In this document: positions 5,004 through 54,298 of the stretch, piece by piece
Numbering within the stretch: position 1 is the first letter of the stretch
Layout: the number at the start of each line of letters is the position of its first letter
Virus record (IMG/VR): IMGVR_UViG_2721755676_000001
DNA from: a virus
Lineage: Duplodnaviria > Heunggongvirae > Uroviricota > Caudoviricetes
Length of the DNA stretch: 64,000 bases
Direction: 5' to 3' (one strand)
Notes under the pieces: model-generated
The model's input: only the letters and a program-made list of their open reading frames with translations
Told to the model about the DNA's origin: nothing
Databases searched by the model: none
Translations under genes and position numbers: made by a program

Positions 5004-5024
5004 TAAGTAACAAAAGGAATTTTT

Positions 5025-33430: not shown

Positions 33431-33461
33431 ATGCATTGGCGCGTACATTGCGCCAATGCAT
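33431..33461. terminator. 12-bp perfect stem-loop (ATGCATTGGCGC-GTACATT-GCGCCAATGCAT) between convergent genes; possible bidirectional terminator
   Basis: Read directly; no strong T-run. Confidence 0.45.
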
Positions 33462-38826: not shown

Positions 38827-39309
38827 TTGGCGGTAATTGTGAAAGCTGATTTGTCAAAAATCCCCTCTATTTCAGGAAATAATGGTTATTCACTTCGTTG
38901 TGAGGAAGTAAAGATAAACGGTGAGTCGGCATATTGCAGCTACTCCGTTTGCCAGCACACCATTCTTGCCTTCAAAGAAAACCGTCTTCCTCGAACTTCA
39001 TTCCAGTCGTGCGCAACCGCTATCAAAGCAGGCAAATGCAAGGCGTTAAAAATGATGGTTGAAGAGATTCGTAAAGGAGAATCTCTGTATTTCGAAGATA
39101 TGACCGCGCTCATTAAGGAGGTTGAAGAACGGAATAAACAAGCCAGAACTTTAAAACGAAAACGTGACAGTGTAACGATTAATAGCATGGTTAAGAAGAG
39201 CACCACATCACAAACAGCGATCACTGACGTGTATGCGGCGTTGCTTGAAGAAACAACAAAAGAAACACATGAGCAAATCGATCAACATATGGAGGTAAAA
39301 CAACAATGA
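38827..39309 (+). CDS. hypothetical Cys-containing protein (start uncertain, TTG/GTG)
   Basis: ORF with no in-frame ATG near 5' end; stop overlaps ligase start. Confidence 0.4.
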   Translation: MAVIVKADLSKIPSISGNNGYSLRCEEVKINGESAYCSYSVCQHTILAFKENRLPRTSFQSCATAIKAGKCKALKMMVEEIRKGESLYFEDMTALIKEVEERNKQARTLKRKRDSVTINSMVKKSTTSQTAITDVYAALLEETTKETHEQIDQHMEVKQQ

Positions 39310-40628
39310 AAAAGTTGATCGCACTTAAGCATAAGCTGGACGAAATGAAAGCTATGGGAACCAATGCAAAAAAAGAGGCATTGGCCAACATGGATGACTT
39401 TGAACAAAGCATGGTTTCATTGATGCTCAACCCTTTCATCCGTTTTGGGGTAAAGAAATACAAAGTGGCAGAGCCGCTTAGTGAGTCCATCCCAAGTGAC
39501 GAAAAAGCCATTGATGTACTGAATAAGCTGGCCTCTCGCGAGCTAACGGGGAACGCAGCAATAGCAGCTGTTGAGTCTATCGTGGCGTCAATGTGCGCCG
39601 ATGGGCAGGACGTGTTCCGTCGTTTCCTCTTAAAAGACCCGAAAGCAGGTGTTGGGATTAGCCTATGCAACAAGGTTTTTGAAAATCCCATTCCGAAATT
39701 CGAGGTGCAGCTGGCGTCAACGTATAAAGAAAAAGGCGACAAATACCCCTTCAAGCCAAATCCTAAAGCAAAATGGCCGATGATTGGCAGTCTTAAGCTC
39801 GATGGTTTGCGAGTAATTTGCGAGGTTATTGTTGACGAGGAAGAGGTTAACTTCCTTTCTCGTACTGGTAATCCAATCACGTCTCTCGATCACCTAAAGC
39901 CAGCCATGCTCGAATTAGGCAAACTTTCAGGCCACAAACACATCTTCTTCGATGGCGAAGGAACTGCCGGTTCATTTAACCAGTCCGTATCTGCATTGCG
40001 CAAAAAGAACGTGCAGGCAATTGGCGCTATTTATCATATTTTCGACTTCTTCCTACCGGAATGGCGAGCACAGGCTAAATCCAAAGAGTATGCAAAGACA
40101 GGTATGAAGCTGAAAGAGCGCCTGGCTATGCTGGTGGCGTTGTTCAAAAACGATCGCAGTGAAGGCTACACACAAGACATTCACCTGCATCCGTTCTATA
40201 TCATCCATAGCCACGAAGACTTCATCGAACGCTTCATGAAACGCCTGGACGATAACGAAGAAGGGGAGATGGGCAAAGATCCGAACTCTGTTTACGAGTT
40301 TAAACGTACCCGCAGCTGGTGGAAGTTAAAAGACGAAGATTCAGAAGATGGTGAAATTATCGACTTTGAGCCGGGCGATCCGGACTCTGGTTTTGCCAAC
40401 ACGCTTGGAAAAATTGTTATTCGCCTTGAAAACGGTGTGATTGTTCGTGCGAGCGGCATTAAGCATAAATATCTGGACGAGATCTGGAACAACAAAGAGA
40501 AGTACCGTGGTCGTATTGTCGAGGTTCATTGTCACGAGAAAACACCTGATGGCAGCTTACGCCACCCACGACTGAAATGGCCGCGTTGCTTACGCGATAC
40601 CGAAGATCGAATCGGAGATAAAGAATGA
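39306..40628 (+). CDS. ATP-dependent DNA ligase
   Basis: Adenylation motif KLDGLR (KxDGxR); size ~440 aa; GGAGG RBS. Confidence 0.7.
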   Translation: MKKLIALKHKLDEMKAMGTNAKKEALANMDDFEQSMVSLMLNPFIRFGVKKYKVAEPLSESIPSDEKAIDVLNKLASRELTGNAAIAAVESIVASMCADGQDVFRRFLLKDPKAGVGISLCNKVFENPIPKFEVQLASTYKEKGDKYPFKPNPKAKWPMIGSLKLDGLRVICEVIVDEEEVNFLSRTGNPITSLDHLKPAMLELGKLSGHKHIFFDGEGTAGSFNQSVSALRKKNVQAIGAIYHIFDFFLPEWRAQAKSKEYAKTGMKLKERLAMLVALFKNDRSEGYTQDIHLHPFYIIHSHEDFIERFMKRLDDNEEGEMGKDPNSVYEFKRTRSWWKLKDEDSEDGEIIDFEPGDPDSGFANTLGKIVIRLENGVIVRASGIKHKYLDEIWNNKEKYRGRIVEVHCHEKTPDGSLRHPRLKWPRCLRDTEDRIGDKE

Positions 40629-40840
40629 TCGTATTAAGTAAAAGGGAGAAAGAAACGCTTCATGAAATCAGTAAGTGGCCGGAGTTCCCTGAGTACTGGA
40701 AGCCTAAAACGCGAGCTAAGTTAGAGCGTTTAGGGTTGGTTGCAAACGTTTCTGAAACGTGGTGCTCGGCCAACTACCAGTTAACTGATAAAGGGAAAGT
40801 ATTGCTACAGCAATTAGTAGAATCAGGAGTGTTAAAATGA
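40625..40840 (+). CDS. hypothetical small protein
   Basis: Translationally coupled (ATGA overlaps) with ligase and next gene. Confidence 0.5.
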   Translation: MIVLSKREKETLHEISKWPEFPEYWKPKTRAKLERLGLVANVSETWCSANYQLTDKGKVLLQQLVESGVLK

Positions 40841-40989
40841 TTCCATACATCTCATTAGCTTTTATGGGTGGCTTCCTTATCGGCTTCGGCATCTGTCGTG
40901 ATTTAATTAAGCAGGAACTTAAAACCAAAACACTGTGCATCGGAAAGCGTGTGTATCGGGTAGTTCATGAAACAAAGGTTAGAAAATGA
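40837..40989 (+). CDS. small membrane protein (50 aa; not in ORF track)
   Basis: ATG 40837 overlaps upstream stop, stop overlaps next ATG at 40986; hydrophobic LAFMGGFLIGFGI. Confidence 0.4.
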   Translation: MIPYISLAFMGGFLIGFGICRDLIKQELKTKTLCIGKRVYRVVHETKVRK

Positions 40990-41276
40990 GCAATTTAACT
41001 TCTTGGGACTGGTGGTTGGCCACCTATTTCTTAGCGGCCGGAGTCGCATTCGCCTTTTACGTAGGTCAGTTAGTCGTAAAACTGCTGCTGATTAAATTTG
41101 CCAGTCATAAACGTATCGATGATGGTCTGTGGCGTCTTGGCACCCTGGTGGAAACTCGCTACGGGCAACTTAAGGAGAACGAAACCATTACTATCCAAGC
41201 GAAACGGTTCACTGCCACCATCACAAGAACACCTAGTCGTAGAGTGGCATTGATCAAAAAAGTCACAACCGAATAA
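40986..41276 (+). CDS. small membrane protein
   Basis: N-terminal TM WWLATYFLAAGVAFAFYVGQLVV; coupled to upstream ORF. Confidence 0.5.
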   Translation: MSNLTSWDWWLATYFLAAGVAFAFYVGQLVVKLLLIKFASHKRIDDGLWRLGTLVETRYGQLKENETITIQAKRFTATITRTPSRRVALIKKVTTE

Positions 41277-41313: not shown

Positions 41314-42054
41314 GTATAAGATGACTTTGTTTTCGTTGAGACGCGACTGTTTGAACTTAAATACAAGTGCAAACGAAGAAGTCTATCTGGCAGTAGCCTA
41401 ATAAGCCAAACACCAGCGAGGTCAGTTTCCAGCCTCGTTACCGAAATGGGACACACTGAGCGAGTGTGATTGCAGAACGCAGGAGGGAACATGAATGTTC
41501 CCTCCGATGAAGTAACAGAATGGGCGGTTGGTATATTTTCAACTCCATATGACTCCCGGATTCTTAGCCACTGACCGCCCATCCTGTTACGTCATTTTGT
41601 TCAATTATGTCGTTTATACTGGGTTAAAAAGCGGCGACGTAGCCCGGCTGGTATGGTTAGCCAGCACACAACGTTGAGGCCATTACATTTTTATCAATTC
41701 TAAGGTTCTATTCACAGAGATACCGGCGAGCGTTGATATGTAACATGTTGGGCAAACATTCAATCGGAGTAGTGGCCTCAACGTTGTGAAGACAGGATTG
41801 TTGTGTAGGTTTAACCACTGTTGCCATTGGTGCCTGTTTTCACAACAAATGATTCCATACATCACATTGTATAAATTACAAAGTAGGTGCTGTCCTCAGA
41901 AACATCATCTACTTAAAGATTTTGCCTTCTACTATTGAGCGAAGTCGAAAGCGTCTGGCACTAACGAAAAGTGCAAGTAGCGGTGCGTTTCCTGGCAGAA
42001 ACTAAACCGTTGCGATTGGCACTGTTGAGTAATAAATACTGGCAGTGCTGAATT

Positions 42055-42126
42055 GATGGTGTAGCTCAGCGGTAGAGCAGTTGGCTGTTAACCAACTGGT
42101 CGGTGGTTCGAATCCACCCACCATCG
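42055..42126 (+). tRNA. tRNA-Asn (anticodon GTT)
   Basis: Cloverleaf folded by hand: acceptor GATGGTG/CACCATC, anticodon loop CTGTTAA, T-arm GGTGG-TTCGAAT-CCACC, discriminator G then CCA. Confidence 0.85.
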
Positions 42127-42134
42127 CCAATTTA

Positions 42135-42218
42135 GGGGAGTTAGTCCGTAGGGGCAGCGGAGTAGACTGTAAATCTACTGTCATGGCGACTCGGGTGGTT
42201 CGACTCCATCACTCCCCA
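42135..42218 (+). tRNA. tRNA-Tyr (anticodon GTA), long variable arm
   Basis: Acceptor GGGGAGT/ACTCCCC, anticodon stem GTAGA/TCTAC with loop CTGTAAA, long variable arm, TTCGACT T-loop, CCA encoded. Confidence 0.8.
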
Positions 42219-42225
42219 CCAAATT

Positions 42226-42298
42226 GCCGGTTTAGCTCAGTTGGTAGAGCGCCTGCCTTGTAAGCAGGATGTCAGCGGTTCGAGTCCGCTAACCGGCA
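42226..42298 (+). tRNA. tRNA-Thr (anticodon TGT)
   Basis: Acceptor GCCGGTT/AACCGGC, D-arm GCTC-AGTTGGTA-GAGC, anticodon loop CTTGTAA, T-arm AGCGG-TTCGAGT-CCGCT, CCA encoded. Confidence 0.85.
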
Positions 42299-42525
42299 CC
42301 AATACAACGATAAGATCATTACGGTTAATCGTCGTTCATGTGCACAATGACTGGTCGAAAGGTAGTGATCTTACCGTTGTGGTGGATTCGCAGACTGATG
42401 CGATAGCTTTCTTGGATGTTAGGGAAATGCGGCCGCAAATCTTCCCTTTCGCGAGCGGTGATCGTCCGTAGTCCTAATTGGCTGCACCGTATGCCGGAGA
42501 TTCAGTACCGGCCACCACAACGGCC

Positions 42526-42609
42526 GGAGAGTAGGGAGCATGGTGCTCAAGCGGTCTTGAAAACCGTCCCATTGCGCAAGCGATGATGGTTCGATTCCAT
42601 TACTCTCCG
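42526..42609 (+). tRNA. tRNA-Ser (anticodon TGA), long variable arm
   Basis: Acceptor GGAGAGT/ACTCTCC, anticodon loop CTTGAAA, long variable arm, T-loop TTCGATT, discriminator G, CCA encoded. Confidence 0.7.
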
Positions 42610-42789
42610 CCAGACACAGCGTTGAGCGGTTTGGCCTTTTAATCACCCAGATTAAGACTCCGCTAACATAAACCAGACCGCTCAACGCTGTGATAGACAA
42701 TTACGGCAGACGTTCTTAACCATAGCTTGCTAACATCCTAGCAACACTTTTTTCAGCGCAAAATTCAAAGGGGCTTCGGCCCCTTTTTG

Positions 42790-43686
42790 TTAATGATTAT
42801 CTAGGTATGCTATTAACTCATTTTTAATGATAAGTGAATATTCTAAAATCTCACCTAGTAAATATTCTGCTTTTTTAAAATGCCAACCCATATAGCCTAA
42901 TTTTTCTGAAGGTCCTTCTAACAACATTATAATATCGCTGTCTTTCTCTTTGGCAATGTATTGTCTTATTTCTATCTCAAAATTATTTCTTGTCTTCCCA
43001 CTTATTGATGATTCATCCAAAACTTTAGTTATAAACTTTTCCGTGTCGATGAACTTTCCTGCATTATGCACAATTGTATGTCTTAGCAGCTCAATTAAAG
43101 TGATCTCGAAACGATAGTTTTTACCTATCTTGTTATTTATTTCTACGTCTCTAAAATTGGGTAACTTTCTTCTAAATACTTTCAGGATTTTTTTTGGTGC
43201 TTTATTATTTCTTTTTATCGCATTGTAGTAGGTTTCCATGTCTCCATTTTGTTCGATCTGAACATTTTTAAATTCACTAGGTTGCCAAAAATGGTCATGA
43301 ATACTCACTGTATGGGCATATATTTTCTTAATATAGTCTTCAAACAATTCATATGCTTCGGTTATAACCCATTGATACTGTTTATTTTTTAACACTTCAC
43401 ATAACTTTATCTTCTCTGAAAGATCTGTTCTAGTATGCCCAATTCCAAATGTTGAACCTGTATATGGATTTGAGCATGTATGGTTTGCTAACGTTGTCCC
43501 GCATGTTAATGGGAAAGTATTATTAGCATCTAGATTTTGTACGTTTTCAAGTGTATGCTTAAATCGCTTTATGTTGTCTTTCGTTGTAACATTTATATGA
43601 CCTAACAAGTCACAACGTAAAATTATTTCATTTCTTAAATCAGTGAATATTTTTTCGACAAAAGAACCTGATGGGTTTTCAATCAT
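42790..43686 (-). CDS. hypothetical AT-rich protein with HEPN-like R-x4-H motif (candidate abortive-infection/defence protein)
   Basis: 298-aa minus-strand ORF, Lys/Asn/Ile-rich, AGAGG RBS; motif RHTIVH; directly flanks tRNA cluster. Confidence 0.5.
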   Translation of the reverse strand: MIENPSGSFVEKIFTDLRNEIILRCDLLGHINVTTKDNIKRFKHTLENVQNLDANNTFPLTCGTTLANHTCSNPYTGSTFGIGHTRTDLSEKIKLCEVLKNKQYQWVITEAYELFEDYIKKIYAHTVSIHDHFWQPSEFKNVQIEQNGDMETYYNAIKRNNKAPKKILKVFRRKLPNFRDVEINNKIGKNYRFEITLIELLRHTIVHNAGKFIDTEKFITKVLDESSISGKTRNNFEIEIRQYIAKEKDSDIIMLLEGPSEKLGYMGWHFKKAEYLLGEILEYSLIIKNELIAYLDNH

Positions 43687-43861
43687 CTAAACCTCTACGA
43701 AAATCTTACCTATAAGACAGTCCTTAATGTAATCTGTTTTCTCCACTACTTCAAATTACCTCACAATCTATTGATAGGTGACTACCTACTTACATACAAA
43801 GTTGATTTATAGTATAGTCCCTCTGTTGCGTATTAGTATTTTAAAAGGCATCTGTTAAGTT

Positions 43862-44107
43862 ATGACGATCACTATCTACGGACGAGATAACTGCTCATAC
43901 TGCAAACGTGCGGTCGAGCTGGCGAAGCAACTAAAGGGACATGGCTACGGTGATTATAAGTACATCGACATCACCACTGCCGGTATCGATAAGGAAAAAC
44001 TTAGCGAAATTGTTGGAAAACCGGTAGAGACTATCCCCCAGGTGCTGATCGATGGCCAGCCGATTGGCGGATACACAGAGATGGCATCTTTCGTAAGTTT
44101 CTTATAA
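43862..44107 (+). CDS. glutaredoxin (NrdH/Grx-like)
   Basis: 81 aa with CSYC active site near N-terminus and glutaredoxin-like C-terminal GG motif. Confidence 0.8.
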   Translation: MTITIYGRDNCSYCKRAVELAKQLKGHGYGDYKYIDITTAGIDKEKLSEIVGKPVETIPQVLIDGQPIGGYTEMASFVSFL

Positions 44108-44144
44108 GTAAAGGCCACATCTTTGTATATATAGTACATATAAC

Positions 44145-44170
44145 AAAAAAGGCCCATGTGGGCCTTTTTC
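44145..44170. terminator. bidirectional intrinsic terminator (AAAAAA-GGCCC-ATGT-GGGCC-TTTTT)
   Basis: GC stem flanked by A-run and T-run between convergent genes. Confidence 0.65.
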
Positions 44171-44198
44171 ATAACTTCTAGCTAATCACTACAGAGGC

Positions 44199-44335
44199 TT
44201 AAAGACCACTTCACCCTTGCGTTCAGCTTCAGCTTTAGCAGTCATGAATCGTTTGATCATTTCGACTTTGCTAGCATGGATAGTTTTAAAATCAATCTTC
44301 CCTTTGTTTTGGGTAGTGTTGTGTTCGTATCGCAT
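44199..44335 (-). CDS. hypothetical small protein (45 aa; not in ORF track)
   Basis: Minus-strand ORF ATG 44335 to TAA 44199, overlapping the 3' end of the upstream minus-strand gene by 44 nt. Confidence 0.25.
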
Positions 44336-44846
44336 AGGAAGCTCCGTCATTTAAATAAGTTAGGCCACGCTCTTGTGTAAATCTCTTCACATATCTCTTG
44401 TATGTGGCCATCAGTTCTTCGCGTTCTGCCGCAAAGAATAAAATCTGTATGCCTTCATTGTCGGCAACTTTGAGCATTAAGTCAACTAAAGTACCGTAAA
44501 GGTATTGAAGTTCACCTAAAGTAAGATTAAAAGACCCTTCGGGTTTGGCAAATACGTTAATTGGCTCTTCCGCTCCAAGAGCAGCATTCTGGAGCTGTTC
44601 TTGCTGCCTGTCAAGTTGAATCATGTCCACAAAACTAACGACAGATACACACAACCCATAAACATCAGCACCTAACATATTATGCATAGTTTCTGCGGCA
44701 ACAGGATCTAAAGAAGGAGGGCAAAAGACTAAACGGTATCTAGCCTTACGAGCTTCATTGCCAGAGAAAACAAAGTCTATATCTAAATATGACAGATCAC
44801 CCGGCAATGAAGCCAAACCAGGTGTAACCAACTTATGCAAGTGCAT
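44292..44846 (-). CDS. hypothetical protein
   Basis: 184-aa minus-strand ORF divergent from the recombinase gene. Confidence 0.5.
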   Translation of the reverse strand: MHLHKLVTPGLASLPGDLSYLDIDFVFSGNEARKARYRLVFCPPSLDPVAAETMHNMLGADVYGLCVSVVSFVDMIQLDRQQEQLQNAALGAEEPINVFAKPEGSFNLTLGELQYLYGTLVDLMLKVADNEGIQILFFAAEREELMATYKRYVKRFTQERGLTYLNDGASYAIRTQHYPKQRED

Positions 44847-44985
44847 CTGTCTCGAATCCCTCTTTATTAGTATAAGTTGTCTTATTGTACCCTACCAAAC
44901 GTTTATATGCATTGTTATGTATTATTTTGATTTTCAATATTACCTCCTAGAACGAAGGGTAGATTTCAAAAAACGCATCCTTAAT

Positions 44986-45012
44986 GATTCCATACCTACT
45001 ATGTATGGAATC
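44986..45012. repeat. perfect 10-bp inverted repeat GATTCCATAC-N7-GTATGGAATC in recombinase upstream region
   Basis: Read directly. Confidence 0.7.
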
Positions 45013-45113
45013 ATTAGTGAAAATGAGTTACTTTTACTCTTGATCCTATAAGAATCTATGCCTAATATACTGTTTACTTATACAGTGAATCGGCGTAACT
45101 CGGTGATTGTCAT

Positions 45114-46217
45114 ATGAAAAATAGCTTTGACAGAGCACGCGCTGCGGAGAACACCTCAAAAGAGGCGATAGAGTATCTCGAAAGAGCATCTCAAATGCAG
45201 GCCGTTATGATCTCCCAGGTCAGCAATGACATGAGATTCTCGGACGCATTCATGTTATTCACTCGCTTATCTCTGCTGATAACCAGACGTCGGCCAGAGA
45301 TCGCTGTTCATTGTATTTTGATACATGTTTTGCCGCACATTGCCGATGTAAAAGTAAGTGACATTAATAGGTTCATGGTGAACCAACTGGTCAACCCACT
45401 AATACTGGATGGCAAAATTGTTATGGGCCGCCGCGTTTTCTCTCTGATGAAGCAGTTCCTTAGCTGGTGCGCCTTCCAGGGGATGATAGACGTGTCACCG
45501 TTAAACGATATGTCACTAAACAAAGTTGCCGGTGGCGCAAAGCCCACACCTCGCGAGCGGAAGCTGACCGACGCAGAGGTATGGGTGTTCTGGAATATAT
45601 GGGACTACTTCAATGTGTGCGCTGGTACAAAATGGGCGGCCAGGCTGTGTCTTGTATCCGCAAGACGACCTGACGAAGTACTGCGGGCTAAAAAAAGTGA
45701 GTTCAATCTTAAGCGTGGGGTTTGGAATCAAGGCAAGAGGAACAAATCTGCCCGTGAGCATTCTCTGCCTTTAAGCTCATTAATGCGCACTTGTATTGAA
45801 GAGTTGTTCGAATATGGTAAAGACAGCCAGTGGCTCGTGCCTTCGAATAAAAAAATCGGGAAAGACCTTCCTATGTCTAAAGTGGCAATAGCCCAGGCAT
45901 TACGTCGTATTCTGGAACGACCAGAACTGATGGAGCTTGAGCCATTTACACCCCGAGACTTGCGCCGTACTGCGCGTAGTTACTTCCCAGCATTAGGCAT
46001 AAGCCAGGAGGTATCACGCAAAATCATGAACCACAGTCTTGAGGGGATAGATCGAGTCTACGACCGGCACGATTATATGGACGAGATGCGAGACGCCTTA
46101 GAAAGTTTCTCGACGTACATCGCATCAATCGTAGAGCAACCGGATTTAGACGAAATTGACCACAAATTCAAGGGAGATCGTCTATCAACAGAGCTTATTC
46201 GTGTAAATTTTTCATAG
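45114..46217 (+). CDS. tyrosine recombinase / integrase family protein
   Basis: C-terminal catalytic-region pattern TPRDLRRTARS...IMNHSLEGIDRVYDRHDY (R, H, Y positions); upstream Arg ARRPDEV; GGTGA RBS. Confidence 0.65.
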   Translation: MKNSFDRARAAENTSKEAIEYLERASQMQAVMISQVSNDMRFSDAFMLFTRLSLLITRRRPEIAVHCILIHVLPHIADVKVSDINRFMVNQLVNPLILDGKIVMGRRVFSLMKQFLSWCAFQGMIDVSPLNDMSLNKVAGGAKPTPRERKLTDAEVWVFWNIWDYFNVCAGTKWAARLCLVSARRPDEVLRAKKSEFNLKRGVWNQGKRNKSAREHSLPLSSLMRTCIEELFEYGKDSQWLVPSNKKIGKDLPMSKVAIAQALRRILERPELMELEPFTPRDLRRTARSYFPALGISQEVSRKIMNHSLEGIDRVYDRHDYMDEMRDALESFSTYIASIVEQPDLDEIDHKFKGDRLSTELIRVNFS

Positions 46218-46598
46218 AGACTTTATGGCCTCAACAACCTTTTGTGATGCGCCTTTCTCTTTACCGAATCGCTCGTTATATGCAGCAAGAACCTGTTTTT
46301 CGTCCTCGTTAAGAGGAGCGGTGCCTTCTTTGTATAAAAATGCTGCGAGTTCAGGTTGGCGTTCTTCCAGCACCATCATCATAAGACGACTTGGCTCAAT
46401 ACCCAGCGCCAGCGCCAACGGACGAACCTTATCGATAGGCAAAGGAATTTTGCCACTTTTAATTAAAGAAAGGTTGTTGGCATTTTTATAACCAATAAGT
46501 CTGGCTATTTGGGCCTGACTCATAGGTGAGGATTCAATCAGCCCTGCGATAAAAGCAGCATAGCGACTTTCTATAAATTCAATCTTGTTGTCAGACAT
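46212..46598 (-). CDS. XRE-family helix-turn-helix transcriptional regulator (putative repressor)
   Basis: HTH-like MSQAQIARLIGYKNANNLSLIKSGK; convergent with recombinase gene; AAAGG RBS. Confidence 0.7.
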   Translation of the reverse strand: MSDNKIEFIESRYAAFIAGLIESSPMSQAQIARLIGYKNANNLSLIKSGKIPLPIDKVRPLALALGIEPSRLMMMVLEERQPELAAFLYKEGTAPLNEDEKQVLAAYNERFGKEKGASQKVVEAIKSL

Positions 46599-46626
46599 TG
46601 TTACAACCTTTGCGCGTTCAATTCTC

Positions 46627-46640
46627 TCTGGTAAGTGCTT
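46627..46640. promoter_or_regulatory. perfect 14-bp palindrome GGTAAGTGCTTACC (candidate operator) upstream of the XRE regulator gene
   Basis: Read directly; 29 nt upstream of the regulator start codon; shares GTAAGT half-site with the genome-wide motif. Confidence 0.5.
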
Positions 46641-46848
46641 ACCGATATTACATCAAAGGTTAGGGTTGTAAAGCTATTATCATTTTTTCGATAGGCACTT
46701 AAAAGACCGGTTAAAGGCCATTGCACGGAGAAAAATTAGCCCAAAACAGGTAAGAAAATTAACTTGCATATGATATGAATGTATTCAGTATTGATATAAA
46801 TTTTAGTAGTATTCCTTACCATAGTATAAGTTAGAATGGATTGATTGA

Positions 46849-47159: not shown

Positions 47160-49268
47160 ATGTCTAAAAAACGTTCCATCAAAGAGGTTCAGGACTTCCG
47201 TGACAGTGTAAAACGAGTAGTCGCTCTCCTTTCAGGTAAAAACATCCCTGTTGCAGAACGAGGGGACGACGCTTATGTACGCTATAACGATGATGGAGAG
47301 CCAATTCTCGTAAACATCCCATCAATCCCGGATAACGCAACACCGGCATTGATGAATGCTGTGCGCGGATTTCTCGATCATGAGGTTGCTCACATTTTGT
47401 TTACCGATATTCGTGTGTCCAACAAAATGAGAGAAAAAGGACGCGTTCCTTCCTGGTCGCTATGGAATGCCTTAGAAGACGTGTTCATCGAGCGAAAAAT
47501 GGGTCAGGTCTTTAACGGAACAAGACGTAATCTGATGGCAACTCAGCGCCTTATAATCGAAAAAGTCTTTAAACCAAAGGCTTCAGAGGCTATTGCTTAT
47601 TGTGGCAAAGATCAGCGCGCGCTTTTTCTAAACTTCTTTCTCTGTCCGGTTGTAAGAGCCTGGGATGGCCAAGCACCGTTCGTAGATTTCATGGATGAAC
47701 ATTGGCCTGTCATTGAGAAACCAATTTCATTATTAAAAGAACATGGTATCGATGTGGCCGTGCGTAACATGTCTTGCACCGAGGATTGTGTAAAGGTGGC
47801 TGCGACCATAGCTAAGATCCTCAAAGACACTGAAAGTGAAAGCAAAGGTAAGGAGTCAGCTCCGGGAAAAACTTCCGATCCTTCAGACGCTGACCAGACG
47901 GATGCCTCTGGAGAAAACAATGAAGACAACGAAGATCATGAGACTCCCTCAGTGTTAGATAATCACAAATCTATCAAATCAGAATCACATAGTAAGTACA
48001 AACATGATAATAACGACAGTGATGATTCAGATAATTCTGAATCATCAGAAACAATATTCGATGATACAGAAAATGATAAAGAGGTATCAGATTCTGATGC
48101 TTCTGATAACGCGGCGTCAGAATCATTAACCGCTGACCACGAAAAAAGAAAAACGACAGAAGACGGCTCTTCAGATATCCCAACTCCGTCAAAAATGAGT
48201 CTGGAAGAGGCTTTAGAGGAGCTGGATAGCATAGAAGATGAAGTCGGAGGCATGACAGAAGATGCTCTATCCGAAACGATTAAAAGCGAGTTAACAGAAA
48301 GCTCGAAAAGCGAATACAGGCCATACAATCGCTCATACGACTTCATCGGCTCGATTGATCAGGCAGAAGCCCATATCAAACGGCTTATTAAAACATTCTC
48401 CGATATTGATTTGGGAGGATATCCAATCAGCCGCTATCGCATCGTTCCTGAAGGCAACCAGCTCTTCGACAAATATATTGAAAAGCATCTTTCGTCAGGT
48501 GTTTCGTCGACGCTGGCAAAAGACCTGGAGCGAGCAATAGCAAGCAGAAACAGAGTTCAGTTTATACCGGGCCAGCGTCGGGGGCGCATTCATGGTTCTA
48601 GTATCTACAGATTAGCAATGAATGATGCTCGCGTGTTTCGTAAAAAAGAAGAATCTAAAGCCGTTAACGCCTGTGTTCAACAAGTGATTGATTTATCAGG
48701 TTCAATGAGTGGTATAACGATTAAACTGGCTCTTGCAAGTGCATATACCATCGCCGATGCCCTTGATCGAATAAATGTTCCCAACATTATCACCGGCTTC
48801 ACTACATTTGGTAGTCATATGGCGGCAGGAGAACTTAAGGCTGTCAAGTATGAGTTCTCTCGCTTTGAATCTTTAATGCTACCTATCATCAAAAATTGGA
48901 ATGAAAAGGTAAATTCTCGCGAAGTTCGCTCACGTATGGGGTGCGTAGGCTACACATTCCCACTTCTTAATAACGTGGATGGTGAAAGCATAGCCAGCCT
49001 TGCATCGTTATTTTCCGGTCGCATGGAGGACAGGAAGATCATGCTTGTTCTGAGTGATGGCGCGCCGTGGGCTGTTGGGAGAGGTTTTGACGCTCATTTG
49101 CGTTCAGTTGCGAAGCAAATTGAAACGCAGACTGATATTGATTTGATGGCAATTGGCATCATGACTGACGCACCGGAGAAATTTTACTCAAATCATGCCC
49201 TGGTAACGAGCGTTGATAGTCTTGGTTCATCTGTAGTTACTGAACTATCTCGTATCATTTTAAAGTGA
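47160..49268 (+). CDS. CobT-like protein with C-terminal von Willebrand A domain
   Basis: MIDAS motif VIDLSGSMSG in C-terminal domain; long acidic Asp/Ser/Glu-rich linker; paired with downstream AAA+ ATPase. Confidence 0.7.
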   Translation: MSKKRSIKEVQDFRDSVKRVVALLSGKNIPVAERGDDAYVRYNDDGEPILVNIPSIPDNATPALMNAVRGFLDHEVAHILFTDIRVSNKMREKGRVPSWSLWNALEDVFIERKMGQVFNGTRRNLMATQRLIIEKVFKPKASEAIAYCGKDQRALFLNFFLCPVVRAWDGQAPFVDFMDEHWPVIEKPISLLKEHGIDVAVRNMSCTEDCVKVAATIAKILKDTESESKGKESAPGKTSDPSDADQTDASGENNEDNEDHETPSVLDNHKSIKSESHSKYKHDNNDSDDSDNSESSETIFDDTENDKEVSDSDASDNAASESLTADHEKRKTTEDGSSDIPTPSKMSLEEALEELDSIEDEVGGMTEDALSETIKSELTESSKSEYRPYNRSYDFIGSIDQAEAHIKRLIKTFSDIDLGGYPISRYRIVPEGNQLFDKYIEKHLSSGVSSTLAKDLERAIASRNRVQFIPGQRRGRIHGSSIYRLAMNDARVFRKKEESKAVNACVQQVIDLSGSMSGITIKLALASAYTIADALDRINVPNIITGFTTFGSHMAAGELKAVKYEFSRFESLMLPIIKNWNEKVNSREVRSRMGCVGYTFPLLNNVDGESIASLASLFSGRMEDRKIMLVLSDGAPWAVGRGFDAHLRSVAKQIETQTDIDLMAIGIMTDAPEKFYSNHALVTSVDSLGSSVVTELSRIILK

Positions 49269-49363
49269 ACAAAACAGCCTTTACGATAAGTAACCACTTA
49301 CGATATATAATGATATATTTATATAAGAAGTTGAACGCTCATTAGAGAACAAAGGAAAAACGC

Positions 49364-50599
49364 ATGACGACTACTGCACTGCAAAATGAAAAAAATCCTT
49401 CTGATTACCTTGTTTGCAAGTGGTGCGGCAAATCATTTCACTATTTTAAGTCCCATGTAGCCAATGGTAATTGCGAGGGCATTCCTGAGTCAGTAAAAGA
49501 TGCCGATCCTGACACCGTACTGAAAATGTACACAACGCAGTTTCCAGATGAACCAACGCTATCGAAAAAGGCACTTGATGCAATTCAAGCTAAACGTGCC
49601 GAGCAAAAAAGCGAAATGGCCAAATCTTCTGGCTTGACCAGTAGCCCTGGCTACACAGGCACAGTTGAGTACAAGACAGATCTGGTCGCAGCTCACGAAC
49701 TGCTAAACGTAACAGTGGAAGAACTCGGAACAAAACGTGGGACGCCGCTCATGGTTAGCGTCAACGTCAATACGCCGTATCCAGAGTTCGTTCCCGAAGT
49801 GAAGAAAGGCTACGTATATGGCGACTTCGAACTGATCAAAGATATTTTCATGATGCTTGAACTTGGCATACCTGGCTATTTGTGGGGTCATGCAGGAACA
49901 GGCAAATCGTCATTGCCTACACAGCTATGTGCTTTGCTCAATCGTCCGTTGATCCGTGCCCAACATACAGCATCAATGGAAGAGGCACATGTTACGGGGC
50001 AAATTCTGGCGCGTGATGGCTCTACGTATTTCGAACCTGGCTTGCTTGCGCTCGCAATGAAGCATGGCTGGGTTTACCTCGCGGATGAATACGACTTTGC
50101 GTTTCCACAAATTCTTGGCGTGTATCAGCCAGTGCTGGAAGGTGAAGCGTTGGTCATCAAAGAGGCAACTCCAGAATGGCGTCGCATTACTCCGCATGAA
50201 CGGTTTGCTTTCATTGGCACTGGCAACACGAACGGATCTGGTGATGAAACCGGCTTGTACCAGGGTACAAACATCCAGAACGCCGCGAACTTTTCGCGTT
50301 TTGGCATCGTTTCGAATGTGAAATACATGAGCAAAGACGCAGAGATCAACATGTTGACAAATGCAGGCATCGTGGATGAATACGCTGAAAAGATGGTTAA
50401 GTTTGCCGGTATCGTTCGCGATGGATACGAAGAACACCTCATTAGTCAGCCAATTGGCCCTCGTGAACTTTTGTTGTCGGCCAAGATTGGAATGATGCGA
50501 GGCGACTTTGTGACAGGTATTGAGCGTTCTTTCATTAACAAACTCCCTTCAGCTTCTGCACAAGCGGCTCGTGAAGTTGTTCAAAAAATATTTGGTTAA
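49364..50599 (+). CDS. CobS/MoxR-like AAA+ ATPase
   Basis: Walker A GHAGTGKSS, Walker B VYLADEYD; AAAGGAAA RBS. Confidence 0.75.
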   Translation: MTTTALQNEKNPSDYLVCKWCGKSFHYFKSHVANGNCEGIPESVKDADPDTVLKMYTTQFPDEPTLSKKALDAIQAKRAEQKSEMAKSSGLTSSPGYTGTVEYKTDLVAAHELLNVTVEELGTKRGTPLMVSVNVNTPYPEFVPEVKKGYVYGDFELIKDIFMMLELGIPGYLWGHAGTGKSSLPTQLCALLNRPLIRAQHTASMEEAHVTGQILARDGSTYFEPGLLALAMKHGWVYLADEYDFAFPQILGVYQPVLEGEALVIKEATPEWRRITPHERFAFIGTGNTNGSGDETGLYQGTNIQNAANFSRFGIVSNVKYMSKDAEINMLTNAGIVDEYAEKMVKFAGIVRDGYEEHLISQPIGPRELLLSAKIGMMRGDFVTGIERSFINKLPSASAQAAREVVQKIFG

Positions 50600-50601
50600 T
50601 C

Positions 50602-50805
50602 GTGCGTAAAGGATGTTTCGGCTCTCTTATCGCTGCTTCTGAAACTGGTAAGGCTTGTCTGGTGTGTCCAGACAAGCCCGATTGTCACCAATCAGCAAAA
50701 GAAGTTGCGATTTCGATGCATGGGAAGTTCGTAGGCTTCCCCAATGACAAAATCAAAAAAACCAGAAAGGTAAAAACACATGAAGGCACTGATGGTTCGA
50801 ACTGA
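50602..50805 (+). CDS. hypothetical small Cys-rich protein
   Basis: 67-aa ORF with C-x13-C-x2-C-x5-C pattern; overlaps polymerase start. Confidence 0.35.
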   Translation: MRKGCFGSLIAASETGKACLVCPDKPDCHQSAKEVAISMHGKFVGFPNDKIKKTRKVKTHEGTDGSN

Positions 50806-53800
50806 CTTCTCACTTGGGGAGTCGGCTCTAAAAGCAGAAAACGCGGTGAAGATTGCCAGAGAAGCTGGCTACACCGCTGTAATTTCAGCAGATAGCATGA
50901 ATATTGCGAGCGTTATTCCACTACAACGTGCCGCTGGTGACGACATGGCGGTTATTTGTGGTGTGAAACTAAACATTGTTGATGATCCCACATACGAGCA
51001 CCGGGCTAAACTTGCTAAAGAATCTATGAGATGTATGGAATCATTAGAGCGAGGACGTAACTACTCGTTTACCGCTCTAATTAAAAATGAGAAAGGATAT
51101 CGCGACATCTGCGAACTAATGACGGCGGCCAACACACGAGAACAGTTCTACTTTGTACCGCGTCTCTCGCTCGAACAGTTGGTTTCTACATATGCCAAAG
51201 GCAACATCATCCTGCTTACTTCCGACATCGGTAGCGTGTTCCAACGCAACGATTTTGCAAAAATCATAAGCACACTGATTACAGCGGGTGGAAAAGACAA
51301 CTTCTATAGTGTGGTTTATCCGCACCCTACCCCATTCTACGACCAGATTAACGTCCGGGCGATGAAAGTCGCCAGCGCATTGAAAATAGAGCCAGTGGCG
51401 TTCTATCCCGCTTATTACGAATCGATCGACGATGCAGACATTAAAGACATTGCGCACATGGTTACGAACAACATCAAAATCGACCAGCCGCATCGTCTGC
51501 GTATCCCCCACCAGCGAGATAACGCCGTCAATGGTCGCCGCCATCTCCTTGAGGCGCTTAAAGCCTTCTCCGTTCGCATGGATGTGCCGGTAACAGCTGC
51601 AATGGCCTCAACAACGCAGGATACCATTATCGATGCCTGCACATGGCGCTGGCATGAATTGCCGCCAGCACTGCCAAAGATGGCAGACGACGAGCCTGCA
51701 ACGCTGATGAAACTGGCTGTTGCAGGGCTGCGTAAACGTCTTACCACAAAAGAGTTTGGCTACACACCACCTGCTTCTGAGAACAGGGTTTATGTTGAGC
51801 GGCTAAAGTACGAAATGGACACGCTGACTCGCCTGGGATTCTGTGGTTACTTCCTGATGGTGCGCGATCTGATGAATCATAGTTGTGAAACTGGCATTCC
51901 CGTTGGGCCTGGTCGTGGTTCCTCTGCCGGTTCTCTGGTGGCGTGGTGCATAGGCATAACCAACGTCGACCCAATCCGTCACGGTCTTCTGTTTGAGCGT
52001 TTCATCAACCCTGAGCGTCTCGACTTGCCGGATGCGGACTTGGACTTCAGCCAGGCACGTCGCCATGAGGTGATCGAGTATCTGAATGAACGCTACGGCG
52101 AAGATTACGTTGCAGGCATTCCGAACTTCACCTACCTGGGCGCAGCCTCTGCACTACGTGACACCGCTCGTATTTATGGTGTGGAGTCCGCAGATATGGC
52201 GGTATCAAAAGAGCTGAAGAACGTCGAGGATGATAGCCTTCCATTGGAAGAGCTGCGCGAACAACTGGCAAGTCTCGACAAATACGCAACAAAATATCCT
52301 GATGCATTCAATGCAGCCTGCAAGTTACAAAGTCTTATGCGTGGCTTTGGTAGACATGCGGCAGGGATGATCGTAGCAGGTGTTCCTCTGACAGAACGTA
52401 CACCGGTTGAACGCCGTGGTGACGCGCGTTGTATCGCATTTGACAAGCGTTACTGCGAGGCTATGGGCCTAATTAAACTGGACGTACTTGGTCTGGCAAC
52501 TCTCGATTTGCTCGATAGTGCAAAACGCTACATAAAAGAGAACACAGGTGAAGATATCAATCTTGATGCCATTTCTCTTGAAGATCGCAAGGTGCTGGAT
52601 GGTTTTGCTGCTGGGTACACTCAAGGTGTTTTCCAGCTTGAATCAGGCCCAATGCGCAAGCTGCTTAAAGATTTAGGTGGTGGAATTGAGCCAATGAGCT
52701 TTAAAACGGTTGTTGCTACGACTGCGCTCTTCCGGCCGGGGCCAATTCAGTCAGGCATGTTGGATGACTATGTTTCTGTAGCCAAAGGCTTTATGACGCC
52801 GGAATCATTACACCCCGTTCTTGATGAACTTACCGCAGAAACAAATGGCGTGATTCTCTATCAGGAACAGACGATGAACGCGACTCGATTGCTTGCTGGC
52901 TTCACAATGGCTGAAGCTGACGGCGTTCGTAAAGCGATCGGCAAAAAAGACATGGAAAAAATGAAGAGCATGGGCGAGAAGTTCATCGTTCAGGCTCAAG
53001 CTGGCTGGATAGACGTTGAGCTGGAAGATGGCACTACACAGCGCATTCACCGTGCGGAACATTTTAAATGCGAAGACGGAACTCTGAAAACTGTCGAAGA
53101 GGCACTTGAGTACGGCGCAAAACTACCTATAAACGCAGTACGCGTTACAGCGTCACATCCAGGGCTATCAGAGATGAAAGCGAAGGAGATCTGGACCGCA
53201 TTCGAAAAGAATGGTGCCTACCAGTTCAACAAATCACACTCTGTTGCTTACTCCTTAATCAGTTATCAATCTATGTGGTTGAAAACTCATTATCCCGCGG
53301 AGTTCTTCGCTGCTGCTCTCACTATTCTTGGCGAAGATAAACACCAGGGGCTGGTTAAAGATGCGCTGACCTATGGTATTCGCGTATTGCCACCAGACGT
53401 TAACGTGTCATCTAACCGAATCGAGATCCGCACGCTTGAAGATGGCAGCCAGGTGCTGTATGCGCCCTTCTCTGCTGTGAAAGGGTGTTCTGAGAATGGC
53501 TGCCAAGCCATCATGAGAGCGCGAGAAAAAGTTGGCGGCAAATTCGAGTCACTGGCGCAATTCGAAGAAGCTGTCGAGAAACGTGCCTGTAATAGTCGAG
53601 TGCGCGAATCGCTGCAAAAAGTAGGGGCGTTTGCATCCATCGAGCCAGGCAGTCTGCCAGCAACTGATCCAGAGCGCCTACGCGACCAGGCTGAATTGAT
53701 GGGAAACCTTGTCATAGATGCAGTTAAAGCCTCACGTCCGTTTGAGATGAACCCCAAACGTTCGGCTGAAATTAACGTACTCATGACGCGGATGGCGGCT

Positions 53801-54298
53801 GAAATGGGCTTAGGTGATGAACTAATCCGCCCCAGCATTGGTATTAAGCCGAAAATCATGATCATTCTGGACAATGCGAACGGCAATGATGCTCGAACCG
53901 GTTACTTTATGGAGAACGGATACGACGACTTTAAGGCCAAGCTATTGACGGCTGGAGATTTACGCATGGGCGATCTCTATGTCACAGGTGTTTGCAAGAA
54001 GGTTAAAGACAAAGAAAAAGACTACACCAAAGACGAGATCGGCCAGTTCACCGACTTTATGCGTGAAGAGATCAATCTGGTGCGTCCGACCTATGTGCTG
54101 ACGTGTGGCAGCCGGGCAACTTCATTGTTTAACAACAAAAACAAGCCATCCGATTTGGTCGGCAGGAAGGAGTATCTTCCAGACCTTGACGTTACTGTCT
54201 TTTACGGGTTTAACCCCAACATTCTTTACTTCAGACCTGAAGAGGGAGAACGACTAGAAGCGATATTAGCCGACGTAGCAGAAACCATTAAGACGTGA
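50780..54298 (+). CDS. DNA polymerase III alpha subunit-like (DnaE-type) replicative polymerase
   Basis: N-terminal PHP-like domain; block GYFLMVRDLMNHSCETGIPVGPGRGSSAGSLVAWCIGITNVDP...LLFERFINPER closely matches the conserved DnaE polymerase core. Confidence 0.9.
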   Translation: MKALMVRTDFSLGESALKAENAVKIAREAGYTAVISADSMNIASVIPLQRAAGDDMAVICGVKLNIVDDPTYEHRAKLAKESMRCMESLERGRNYSFTALIKNEKGYRDICELMTAANTREQFYFVPRLSLEQLVSTYAKGNIILLTSDIGSVFQRNDFAKIISTLITAGGKDNFYSVVYPHPTPFYDQINVRAMKVASALKIEPVAFYPAYYESIDDADIKDIAHMVTNNIKIDQPHRLRIPHQRDNAVNGRRHLLEALKAFSVRMDVPVTAAMASTTQDTIIDACTWRWHELPPALPKMADDEPATLMKLAVAGLRKRLTTKEFGYTPPASENRVYVERLKYEMDTLTRLGFCGYFLMVRDLMNHSCETGIPVGPGRGSSAGSLVAWCIGITNVDPIRHGLLFERFINPERLDLPDADLDFSQARRHEVIEYLNERYGEDYVAGIPNFTYLGAASALRDTARIYGVESADMAVSKELKNVEDDSLPLEELREQLASLDKYATKYPDAFNAACKLQSLMRGFGRHAAGMIVAGVPLTERTPVERRGDARCIAFDKRYCEAMGLIKLDVLGLATLDLLDSAKRYIKENTGEDINLDAISLEDRKVLDGFAAGYTQGVFQLESGPMRKLLKDLGGGIEPMSFKTVVATTALFRPGPIQSGMLDDYVSVAKGFMTPESLHPVLDELTAETNGVILYQEQTMNATRLLAGFTMAEADGVRKAIGKKDMEKMKSMGEKFIVQAQAGWIDVELEDGTTQRIHRAEHFKCEDGTLKTVEEALEYGAKLPINAVRVTASHPGLSEMKAKEIWTAFEKNGAYQFNKSHSVAYSLISYQSMWLKTHYPAEFFAAALTILGEDKHQGLVKDALTYGIRVLPPDVNVSSNRIEIRTLEDGSQVLYAPFSAVKGCSENGCQAIMRAREKVGGKFESLAQFEEAVEKRACNSRVRESLQKVGAFASIEPGSLPATDPERLRDQAELMGNLVIDAVKASRPFEMNPKRSAEINVLMTRMAAEMGLGDELIRPSIGIKPKIMIILDNANGNDARTGYFMENGYDDFKAKLLTAGDLRMGDLYVTGVCKKVKDKEKDYTKDEIGQFTDFMREEINLVRPTYVLTCGSRATSLFNNKNKPSDLVGRKEYLPDLDVTVFYGFNPNILYFRPEEGERLEAILADVAETIKT

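Follow-up and report, generated by a model that had tools for sequence, protein, structure and literature searches.

Site-specific recombination pairs of the Cre/loxP type, such as Cre/loxP of phage P1, Dre/rox, Vika/vox, and XerH/difH, associate a recombinase devoid of arm-binding domain with a single palindromic site next to its gene, formed of 12-14-bp inverted arms around a short asymmetric spacer; they share a plasmid-prophage lifestyle and an expected role in multimer resolution or circularisation. The P4-type (CP4-57-like) integrases, for which a 7-bp overlap is typical as it is for lambda-type integrases, combine the domains PF22022 and PF00589 and carry their catalytic tyrosine in a C-terminal VYDRHDY motif. 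In the integron platform (intI, attI, and Pint), the recombinase gene diverges from a variable cargo with the site in between, and the promoter of the integrase carries a LexA box. Prophage morons and defence hotspots, as found at the integrase-proximal ends of lambdoid and P2-like prophages, are self-contained, strongly transcribed and patchily distributed cassettes adjacent to the integrase. We describe here a locus that recalls each of these systems, located in a stretch of 64,000 nucleotides from a virus of the Caudoviricetes (IMG/VR record IMGVR_UViG_2721755676_000001), the whole of which is hereafter called the window. The region under study (44189-45113, both strands) comprises a two-gene cassette and a divergent region with a long palindrome, and is followed by int, the gene of a tyrosine recombinase (Int). 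We estimate at about 0.6 the probability of an overall reading in which the cassette is a moron lodged in a cargo slot, the palindrome is the core site of Int, and int is controlled by LexA.

The element itself is an SSU5-like phage-plasmid, both a temperate phage and a plasmid of about 108 kb. Over 98% of its length, the 43800-46700 region shares 97.6% identity with Escherichia phage Cyrano (OV696614), which is the SSU5-like phage-plasmid pLF82 of the adherent-invasive E. coli strain LF82, where it is present at 5.5 copies per cell and inducible with ciprofloxacin (PMC9928086). SSU5-like phage-plasmids are reported to be exclusively extrachromosomal (PMC9600943). Within this element, the surroundings of 44189-45113 are best read as an accessory-cargo slot joined to a recombination and control region.

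The palindrome (44982-45016) has a 14-7-14 structure, TAATGATTCCATAC-CTACTAT-GTATGGAATCATTA, with perfect 14-bp arms at 44982-44995 and 45003-45016 and the spacer CTACTAT at 44996-45002, 97 bp upstream of int. A preliminary description, made from the letters of this DNA only, had noticed an inverted repeat in the divergent region and proposed it as a candidate core site of the recombinase; the repeat is present, with arms of 14 rather than 10 bp and limits wider than 44986-45012, and the proposal agrees with the comparison of related elements, where the palindrome always stands beside int and its arms co-vary with Int. No longer perfect inverted repeat with a short loop exists in the window, and arms of at least 14 bp were obtained in none of 30 dinucleotide shuffles. 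Its distribution was established by scanning for the exact 12-mer arms separated by any 7-bp spacer (12-7-12). This version was found in 101 IMG/VR viral contigs and in seven genomes of a collection holding one representative genome for each of 185,579 species, always adjoining int. In the IMG/VR loci where int was detected, whose Int proteins span 59-100% identity, the gene starts to the right of the palindrome in 100 of 100 cases, at a distance of 96-101 bp, or of 44-46 bp in the group of 59-61% identity; altogether, the palindrome lies 45-150 bp upstream of a recombinase gene in about 115 related elements. The seven species genomes carry it on plasmid-sized contigs, including those of Kluyvera, Buttiauxella, and Chimaeribacter and a 108-kb contig of Yersinia pestis that we take to be plasmid pMT1. 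Similarly, 251 of 5426 complete E. coli genomes harbor the palindrome, once each and on a plasmid in all 251, and a chromosomal copy was found in none of the 5426.

More distant homologues of Int (44-50% identity) present a 12-7-12 palindrome at the same place with arms of a second class, (A/G)TGACTCCAGAC, which occurs in Xenorhabdus, Providencia, and Erwinia as well as on eight further viral contigs; in 10 of the 11 loci, the neighbour is an Int homologue of 40-50% identity. Two arm classes thus go with two groups of recombinases, ATGATTCCATAC with Int of 57-100% identity and (A/G)TGACTCCAGAC with Int of 44-50% identity, and the change from ATGATTCCATAC to RTGACTCCAGAC consists of two substitutions mirrored in both arms. 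The palindrome is very probably the target, or core site, of the adjacent tyrosine recombinase. A short motif, TTCAAAAAAC (44965-44974), conserved as TTCA(N0-3)AAAAC at 8-10 bp to the left of the palindrome, is kept with both arm classes and in most of the left-flank (cargo) types shown, and probably assists the site as an accessory, perhaps DNA-bending, element. Many lineages have a similar CAAAA(A)C just on the other, right-hand side. The spacer was encountered in both orientations between otherwise identical flanks, as CTACTAT/ATAGTAG and CTATTAA/TTAATAG (window, 44996-45002; L002, about 5017-5023; L046, L048, and L116), which indicates that flips occurred more than once. Such flips would be neutral for a resolution site with symmetric arms; they could come from template switching in a hairpin or from recombination in the "wrong" alignment, the spacer being of the near-palindromic form xTAyTAz. 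We found no description of the palindrome in the searchable literature: full-text searches with the arm sequence returned unrelated papers only, and the site does not appear in the paper on the discovery of Cre-type systems, whose pipeline demands an 8-bp spacer and would miss a site with a 7-bp spacer (PMC10250229).

As the preliminary description had it, a recombinase gene adjoins this region: int (45114-46217, plus strand) encodes a P4-type-related tyrosine recombinase of 367 amino acids (aa) with PF22022 and PF00589 (E 2.9e-10). Among 41 aligned homologues, R185, K211, R284/R285, and Y316 are invariant, and H307 and R281 (first His position) nearly so. The clade of Int, with proteins of 360-380 aa, bears only PF22022 and PF00589 and lacks the N-terminal arm-binding domain PF13356/DUF4102, which is restricted to longer relatives (400-460 aa) of 26-34% identity; the alignment of Int with NCBIfam PRK09692 begins at model position 137. 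A recombinase of two domains, inverted arms of 12-14 bp and a 7-bp spacer constitute the anatomy of a simple core site. The locus shares with P4-type integrases the pair of domains, the VYDRHDY motif and the 7-bp crossover region, and differs from them by the missing PF13356 and by the failure to find arm-type sites, an excisionase or a chromosomal attB. Compared with the Cre/loxP-type pairs, which it resembles in the layout set out above, with arms within 11-15 bp, an asymmetric spacer within 6-8 bp near the gene and an arm specificity that co-varies with the recombinase, it differs by a spacer of 7 instead of 8 bp, by the descent of Int from P4/lambda-type integrases, by the LexA box on the int promoter, and by the isolated arm copies and the TTCAAAAAAC flank described here. 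An arm-like sequence is also present inside int (45720-45731, minus strand), as TTGATTCCAAAC in the window and as TTGATTCCATAC, with one mismatch, in Klebsiella and the lineages of 84-88% identity; it always lies about 735 bp from the palindrome, encodes VWNQ, and may be a coincidence or a fourth weak site.

A candidate int promoter can be read on the plus strand at 45040-45068, with the hexamers TTGATC (45040-45045) and TAATAT (45063-45068) separated by 17 nucleotides (nt); nearly all lineages with Int of at least 82% identity retain the two hexamers, although the promoter falls below the threshold of the consensus scanner. A LexA (SOS) box, TACTGTTTACTTATACAGTG, extends over 45068-45087 with the form TACTGT-N8-ACAG(T), and its core TACTGTTTACTTATACAG (45068-45085) is the only CTGT-N8-ACAG of the window. 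The box shares one base with the -10 hexamer and covers the expected transcription start of int. In almost all lineages with Int of at least 82% identity, the half-sites CTGT and ACAG are kept and the eight bases between them vary freely, as one would expect of a functional SOS box; the exceptions are three loci with a G or C variant and one locus (L048) with a degenerate box, and the box is absent from the group with Int of 57-61% identity. The int gene is probably under SOS control and its expression is predicted to rise with DNA damage. In LF82, the log2 expression of int increases from 5.6 in LB to 10.3 after 6 h in macrophages (about 26-fold), and other Cyrano genes rise too (PMC9928086), so that this increase is consistent with, and not specific to, a control by LexA. 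The several TAAGTA-type sites announced for the divergent region come down to a single exact TAAGTA (45075-45080, minus strand), which falls within the N8 of the LexA box. A second strong LexA box, TACTGTATGTGTATACAGTA, was seen directly upstream of the annotated gene of a LexA-like S24 peptidase (L122, 34278-34301; Cyrano, 89277-89300).

On the left of the palindrome, the window carries a variable cargo segment of 879 bp (44086-44964) in place of 83 bp of an "empty" allele, as delimited by blastn against loci L032 and L054. Homology with this allele ends at 44085, inside the 3' end of a glutaredoxin gene, and restarts at 44965, some 19 bp short of the 12-mer arm of the palindrome. The distance from the glutaredoxin stop codon to the palindrome is 83-86 bp in 27 related loci, which we call empty, and takes many lengths from 790 to 2372 bp elsewhere, with still other loci bearing larger unrelated inserts. 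Among the occupants, some of them seen in L034 (-2314 to -1264 relative to its palindrome), L005, and L014, are the known and validated defence gene PD-T7-5 (E 1.4e-100), a 448-aa HEPN/Toprim protein, a YafO-type toxin pair, and fragments of a fimbrial usher. Several lineages have unrelated minus-strand proteins of 157-190 aa right beside the palindrome, with a faint C-terminal likeness to the 184-aa protein of the window; for four such integrase-proximal slot proteins homology is not claimed, as hhalign gave a probability of 32% over 48 C-terminal columns. In a pangenome study, the resistance-gene insertions of SSU5-like elements were placed in a single locus, with the PhoH and DNA ligase genes among its listed neighbours (PMC9600943), and both genes flank the region in the window as well. 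Copies of the arm with at most one mismatch are restricted to the palindrome, three fixed isolated positions and the one position inside int, and none of the cargos is bounded by a second copy. With no second arm at the cargo ends and breaks lying outside the palindrome, cargo turnover proceeds by ordinary recombination between conserved flanks. The surmise that the vicinity of the recombinase is a hotspot for accessory cargo was therefore sound; by sequence comparison, the slot is such a hotspot and its cargo is not inserted through the palindrome.

In the mechanism that we favor, the palindrome at 44982-45016 would be the core site of Int, a recombinase without arm-binding domain, with one monomer bound to each arm and strand exchange across the 7-bp spacer by analogy with Cre/loxP. 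Its likely job would be the resolution of plasmid multimers and perhaps the circularisation of incoming phage DNA, as for Cre/loxP in P1; we infer these tasks as the most economical ones for an element that lives outside the chromosome as a multicopy plasmid prophage. Through the LexA box on its promoter, synthesis of the recombinase would rise with DNA damage. The cassette, for its part, behaves like a moron: it is self-contained and has its own terminator as well as a presumed promoter. Several points weigh against this interpretation. The nearest solved folds of Int are integrative recombinases (lambda Int, Tn1549 Int, and IntI) and not Cre: in Foldseek searches, the model of Int (pLDDT 85) matches residues 75-356 of lambda Int with E 2e-7 and TMt 0.74, and Cre with E 2e-2, Xer being matched too. 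A relationship of Int with Cre was rejected, as a PDB sequence search gave no hit at E up to 1 and the fold is nearer to that of lambda Int; a Cre-like way of working is possible all the same. An operator or a hairpin could likewise take the form of a perfect palindrome, and three isolated half-sites lying kilobases away are foreign to simple Cre/lox-type systems. Finally, a control by LexA is unusual for multimer resolution and hints at another role; being unexpected for a housekeeping resolution function, it is one of the reasons why our confidence in multimer resolution is only moderate.

The three isolated half-sites consist of the 12-nt arm followed by ATC (AATGATTCCATACATC for the first one) and are all oriented toward int. 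The first (40836-40851, plus strand) overlaps the start codon of an open reading frame (ORF) of 50 aa, the second (41848-41863, plus strand) is intergenic, about 190 bp upstream of a tRNA cluster, and the third (51030-51045, minus strand) is found inside the DNA polymerase III alpha gene, on the strand opposite to it. The three copies are exact, and this number of matches to the 16-mer was reached in none of 100 shuffles. Wherever a lineage of the ATGATTCCATAC class covers those positions, they occupy the same places with the same orientation, the two left copies about 1.0 kb apart and the right one at 6.05-6.34 kb from the palindrome, and the synonymous positions are frozen where they fall in codons (MIPYI at the start of the 50-aa ORF and CMES in the polymerase gene). 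Neither the window nor the other 50 kb of Cyrano that were examined holds a further copy, and none was found in the (A/G)TGACTCCAGAC class. The half-sites were also considered as marks of a replication terminus or of a Ter-like fork trap, a proposal that was set aside given that there is no GC-skew switch near 45 kb, that RepA is only about 20 kb away in Cyrano, and that the arm motif is unlike the Ter consensus of Tus. They do not look like scars of site-specific insertion either, since the bases that follow them in the arm's orientation show no shared one-strand spacer and no second degenerate arm. A 71-aa upstream regulator was discarded as the arm-binding protein, its gene being absent from several lineages with identical arms.

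In a more elaborate view, which we hold to be rather unlikely, Int, the palindrome, the TTCAAAAAAC motif and the three half-sites would form one higher-order, SOS-triggered system instead of a simple site for resolving multimers; a second, more modest idea is that the cassette would be an undescribed anti-phage defence or exclusion system. In the first case, with half-sites placed 3-4 kb away on one side and 6 kb on the other, frozen in sequence even in coding regions, a nucleoprotein domain induced by damage might reprogramme about 10 kb that hold lysogeny and replication genes. Transcription of int running antisense into the convergent repressor gene might help: int (plus) and the gene of a helix-turn-helix (HTH) protein (minus) converge and their 3' ends overlap by 6 bp (46212-46217), and SOS-driven transcription of int might thereby contribute to induction, which is offered as an idea only. 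The existence of isolated arms also makes a model of dispersed operators the strongest rival of the core-site reading. According to this model, to which we grant a small share of probability, the palindrome and the isolated arms would be operators of the 128-aa HTH protein or of another repressor, the palindrome acting two-faced at divergent promoters. The C1 operators of the phage-plasmid P1, which are asymmetric, scattered and sometimes paired as palindromes, offer a precedent for such a dispersed asymmetric layout, and a 15-nt arm that stands alone at three conserved places over a span of 10 kb is more regulon-like than lox-like. The HTH gene is near, and its expression is 10-fold above background in the lysogen (PMC9928086). 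However, the arms are unchanged where the HTH protein falls to 43-57% identity, they persist with int in Chimaeribacter, where no HTH homologue was detected downstream of int, and the palindrome accompanies int on an Erwinia plasmid that has neither HTH gene nor phage backbone. Moreover, rather than covering the int promoter, the palindrome stands 24 bp upstream of its -35 hexamer, one of the isolated arms sits within a coding region on the opposite strand, and arms of 12-14 bp around an asymmetric 7-bp spacer are typical of tyrosine recombinase sites.

The palindrome would also fold in RNA, and it is conceivable, if improbable, that it acts mainly as a hairpin, namely a terminator or insulator that would keep leftward transcription, such as read-through from the repressor gene that crosses int in antisense, out of the cargo slot. 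The minus-strand RNA indeed folds into a stem of 14 bp, prolonged into the flanks and with UUUUUUG behind it (-22.1 kcal/mol, z -5.6), and the corresponding T run, within the TTCAAAAAAC motif, is kept in most lineages. Yet the arms are conserved as an exact sequence, with no compensatory change over Int identities of 57-100%, the single arm recurs where no hairpin is possible, and the U run stands 8-10 nt from the perfect stem, a non-canonical position, the stem being AT-rich; a terminator role could nevertheless coexist with a recombination site. An integron-like behavior, in which an SOS-induced recombinase would capture circular cargo at the palindrome, is suggested by the platform-like layout with recombinase gene and cargo diverging from a site between them, by the LexA box on the recombinase promoter, by the high variability of the slot and by the presence of IntI among the structural neighbours of Int. 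We judge it very unlikely: no second arm or attC-like repeat bounds any cargo, the breaks relative to the empty allele fall about 19 bp outside the arm and inside the glutaredoxin gene rather than at a site, and in lineages with Int of 84-86% identity the cassette has diverged as much as its flanks. Unlike the cargo of integrons, moreover, that of the slot has its own promoters and terminators. The least credible alternative is that the palindrome serves as attP for integration of the phage-plasmid into the chromosome, as could be expected from an Int of P4-type lineage resembling lambda Int. The search of complete E. coli genomes, with its 251 carriers all on plasmids, gave no chromosomal match, and exact arms were confined to the seven plasmid-sized contigs in the species collection, a result with which a degenerate attB in other hosts would be compatible. 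In addition, Int lacks the arm-binding domain of its integrative relatives, no excisionase gene was recognised in the region, and the elements are reported to be exclusively extrachromosomal (PMC9600943).

The cassette that fills the slot of the window consists of two minus-strand genes. Gene A (44292-44846) encodes a cytoplasmic alpha/beta protein of 184 aa, exactly as had been described from the ORF list. The small ORF that was said to overlap it exists and does overlap, and its limits had to be revised: instead of a 45-aa frame with its left end at 44199, gene B is an ORF of 53 aa (44189-44350) whose probable product has 48 aa, since the second ATG (44335), preceded by GGAG, is chosen in all nine homologue clusters. 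Gene B overlaps the 3' end of gene A by 44-59 nt, and its product is basic and probably helical. Between the glutaredoxin gene and the cassette, the bidirectional intrinsic terminator that had been predicted was recovered at 44146-44169, a perfect 11-nt inverted repeat (AAAAAGGCCCA/TGGGCCTTTTT) forming a GC-rich stem with A/T runs on either side, so that a U run follows the hairpin on both strands; the two RNA folds reach -15.1 and -17.5 kcal/mol (z about -4.2 to -4.3). A candidate sigma-70 promoter of the cassette, TTGGTA-18-TATACT (44869-44898, minus strand), is a weak match (9/12) from a consensus scan only.

Homologues of gene A form 29 clusters of 46-99% identity over the full length, all from Enterobacterales (Escherichia, Enterobacter, Salmonella, Pantoea, Yersinia, and Xenorhabdus), with a conservation pattern of the protein type. 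A homologous small ORF with the same overlap follows the gene A homologue in every context that was opened: a chromosomal islet beside pckA in Xenorhabdus, an islet beside tmcA in Yersinia, the integrase-proximal end of lambdoid prophages, other SSU5-like lineages, and Buttiauxella. From these comparisons, the two ORFs are one conserved and portable two-gene cassette. Apart from Cyrano and the window, 5 of about 100 related IMG/VR loci have it; so do 8 of the 5426 complete E. coli genomes, in each case on a plasmid of 108-112 kb, and the cargo segment is 100% identical to that of a 110-kb E. coli plasmid. A tblastn search of 50,697 phage records matched the cassette in Cyrano only. In lineages with Int of 84-86% identity, the cassette and its flanks show a uniform and continuous nucleotide identity of about 77% to the window, which indicates that the cassette is old in the slot and was inherited vertically rather than captured recently or repeatedly.

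In RNA sequencing data of LF82, CYRAN_43, the orthologue of gene A, is listed as a moron transcribed 723-fold above the prophage background (PMC9928086, Table 1), with a log2 of fragments per kilobase per million of 11.5-14.9 in all ten samples, compared to 3.6-6.8 for the adjacent glutaredoxin gene (PMC9928086, S1 Table). This high transcript level suggests that the cassette has its own promoter. Like a moron, it is absent from the 27 empty relatives, has its own terminator and is strongly transcribed in the lysogen, and its role is most likely to be of the lysogen-benefit, defence or toxin-antitoxin kind, as with other occupants of the slot. The 184-aa protein, presented at first as being of unknown function, received no assignment from homology and structure searches: no match was found in Pfam or NCBIfam, its PHROG family is labeled "unknown function", an exhaustive HMMER search of 1.84 billion representatives retrieved only 15 relatives, none of them informative, and sequence and profile searches of the PDB with the cassette proteins gave no match (E up to 10 for the 184-aa profile). 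The product of gene B, for which NCBIfam gave no hit, matches DUF5486 (PF17588) only weakly, with 20.6 bits for a cut-off of 27, and matches phrog_2140 (3.8e-14), a family likewise labeled "unknown function"; two of its homologues (81-85% identity) hold a precomputed PF17588 assignment, and no paper on DUF5486 was found in the literature search. We found no description of the cassette in the searchable literature. We regard it, from sequence comparison, as an undescribed moron in a known plastic locus; compared to other prophage morons and defence hotspots, it matches no described defence, toxin-antitoxin or conversion family.

A defence or toxin-antitoxin role of the cassette has to be set against several results. 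The PADLOC 2.0 defence models returned no family at E up to 1 for either protein, and no toxin or antitoxin domain was recognised in them with Pfam, NCBIfam, and PADLOC. Part of the read count of CYRAN_43 may come from a stable RNA rather than from a messenger. Foldseek comparisons of the 184-aa protein with the GNAT (acyl-CoA N-acyltransferase) fold were weak, with nothing significant and TM values of 0.37 or less, and non-enzymatic proteins with a similar sandwich are also among its structural matches. The acetyl-CoA (pyrophosphate-binding) loop Q/R-x-x-G-x-G/A is not present on reading of the sequence, the corresponding strand (strand 4) being followed by VDMIQLDRQQ, which has no glycine. 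Membership of the GNAT acetyltransferase family was rejected for lack of this motif and of any Pfam, NCBIfam or PDB profile match. Two small, overlapping and co-directional genes nonetheless recall a plasmid-addiction toxin-antitoxin pair, and such a pair, instead of a defence or conversion function, is an explanation that we find doubtful rather than negligible. A YafO toxin pair is among the other occupants of the same slot, several toxin-antitoxin pairs are carried by Cyrano, and the GNAT-fold toxins TacT, KacT, and AtaT are found among the weak structural matches (TM below 0.4) of the 184-aa protein. On the contrary, the failure of both proteins to match a toxin or antitoxin family and the absence of the acetyl-CoA motif speak against such a pair, as do the order and sizes of the genes, which are unlike those of GNAT/RHH (ribbon-helix-helix) pairs, where the small antitoxin gene comes first. 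Transcription so strong and so constant across conditions would also be unusual, to our expectation, for an autorepressed operon.

The wider gene map around the locus is as follows. On the plus strand, a DNA ligase gene (39306-40628), small ORFs (40625-41276) and the tRNA cluster (42055-42612) precede a 298-aa ORF on the minus strand (42790-43686; phrog_35492, no Pfam hit) and the glutaredoxin gene (43862-44107, plus strand). Downstream of int come the gene of the 128-aa HTH protein (46212-46598, minus strand), annotated in Cyrano as a putative repressor, and the CobT-like, CobS-like and DNA polymerase III alpha genes (47160-54298, plus strand). The 298-aa ORF is replaced by a different sequence in Cyrano and other close relatives and marks a second variable slot. 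An Rfam search for known RNAs retrieved tRNAs only; two of them, at 42135-42221 and 42526-42612, deserve mention, a tRNA-Tyr that is present in the window and unannotated in Cyrano, and a tRNA-Ser(tga) whose score with the Rfam tRNA-Sec model (46.6 bits) is just under the threshold of 47. Other repeats were noticed as well. TAAGTA is enriched in the window as a whole, with 46 occurrences for 21.7 expected and no shuffle reaching 46, and is not specific to the divergent region; it often occurs as overlapping TAAGTAAGTA pairs, e.g., at 4915, 16894, 34495, 41296, and 54870. Another perfect 12-7-12 palindrome, ATGCATTGGCGC-GTACATT-GCGCCAATGCAT (33431-33461), stands between two convergent ORFs and might serve as a protein site or as a terminator-like hairpin lacking a T run.

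SSU5-like phage-plasmids are widespread among Enterobacteriaceae and carry resistance and defence genes in one plastic locus, of which the palindrome defines the fixed right-hand border. On the present comparison of sequences, Int and its palindrome would be an undescribed recombinase/core-site pair of the simple type, with nothing categorically new as yet. In the adherent-invasive E. coli strain that hosts Cyrano, no other gene of this prophage is transcribed as strongly as the cassette, and this very high expression, together with the SOS box and the frozen half-sites, makes bench work worthwhile. As a candidate pair with a 7-bp spacer, missed by searches restricted to 8 bp, Int and its palindrome offer two natural specificity classes for genome engineering, and the putative target of the recombinase provides a way to test how such large plasmids are maintained.

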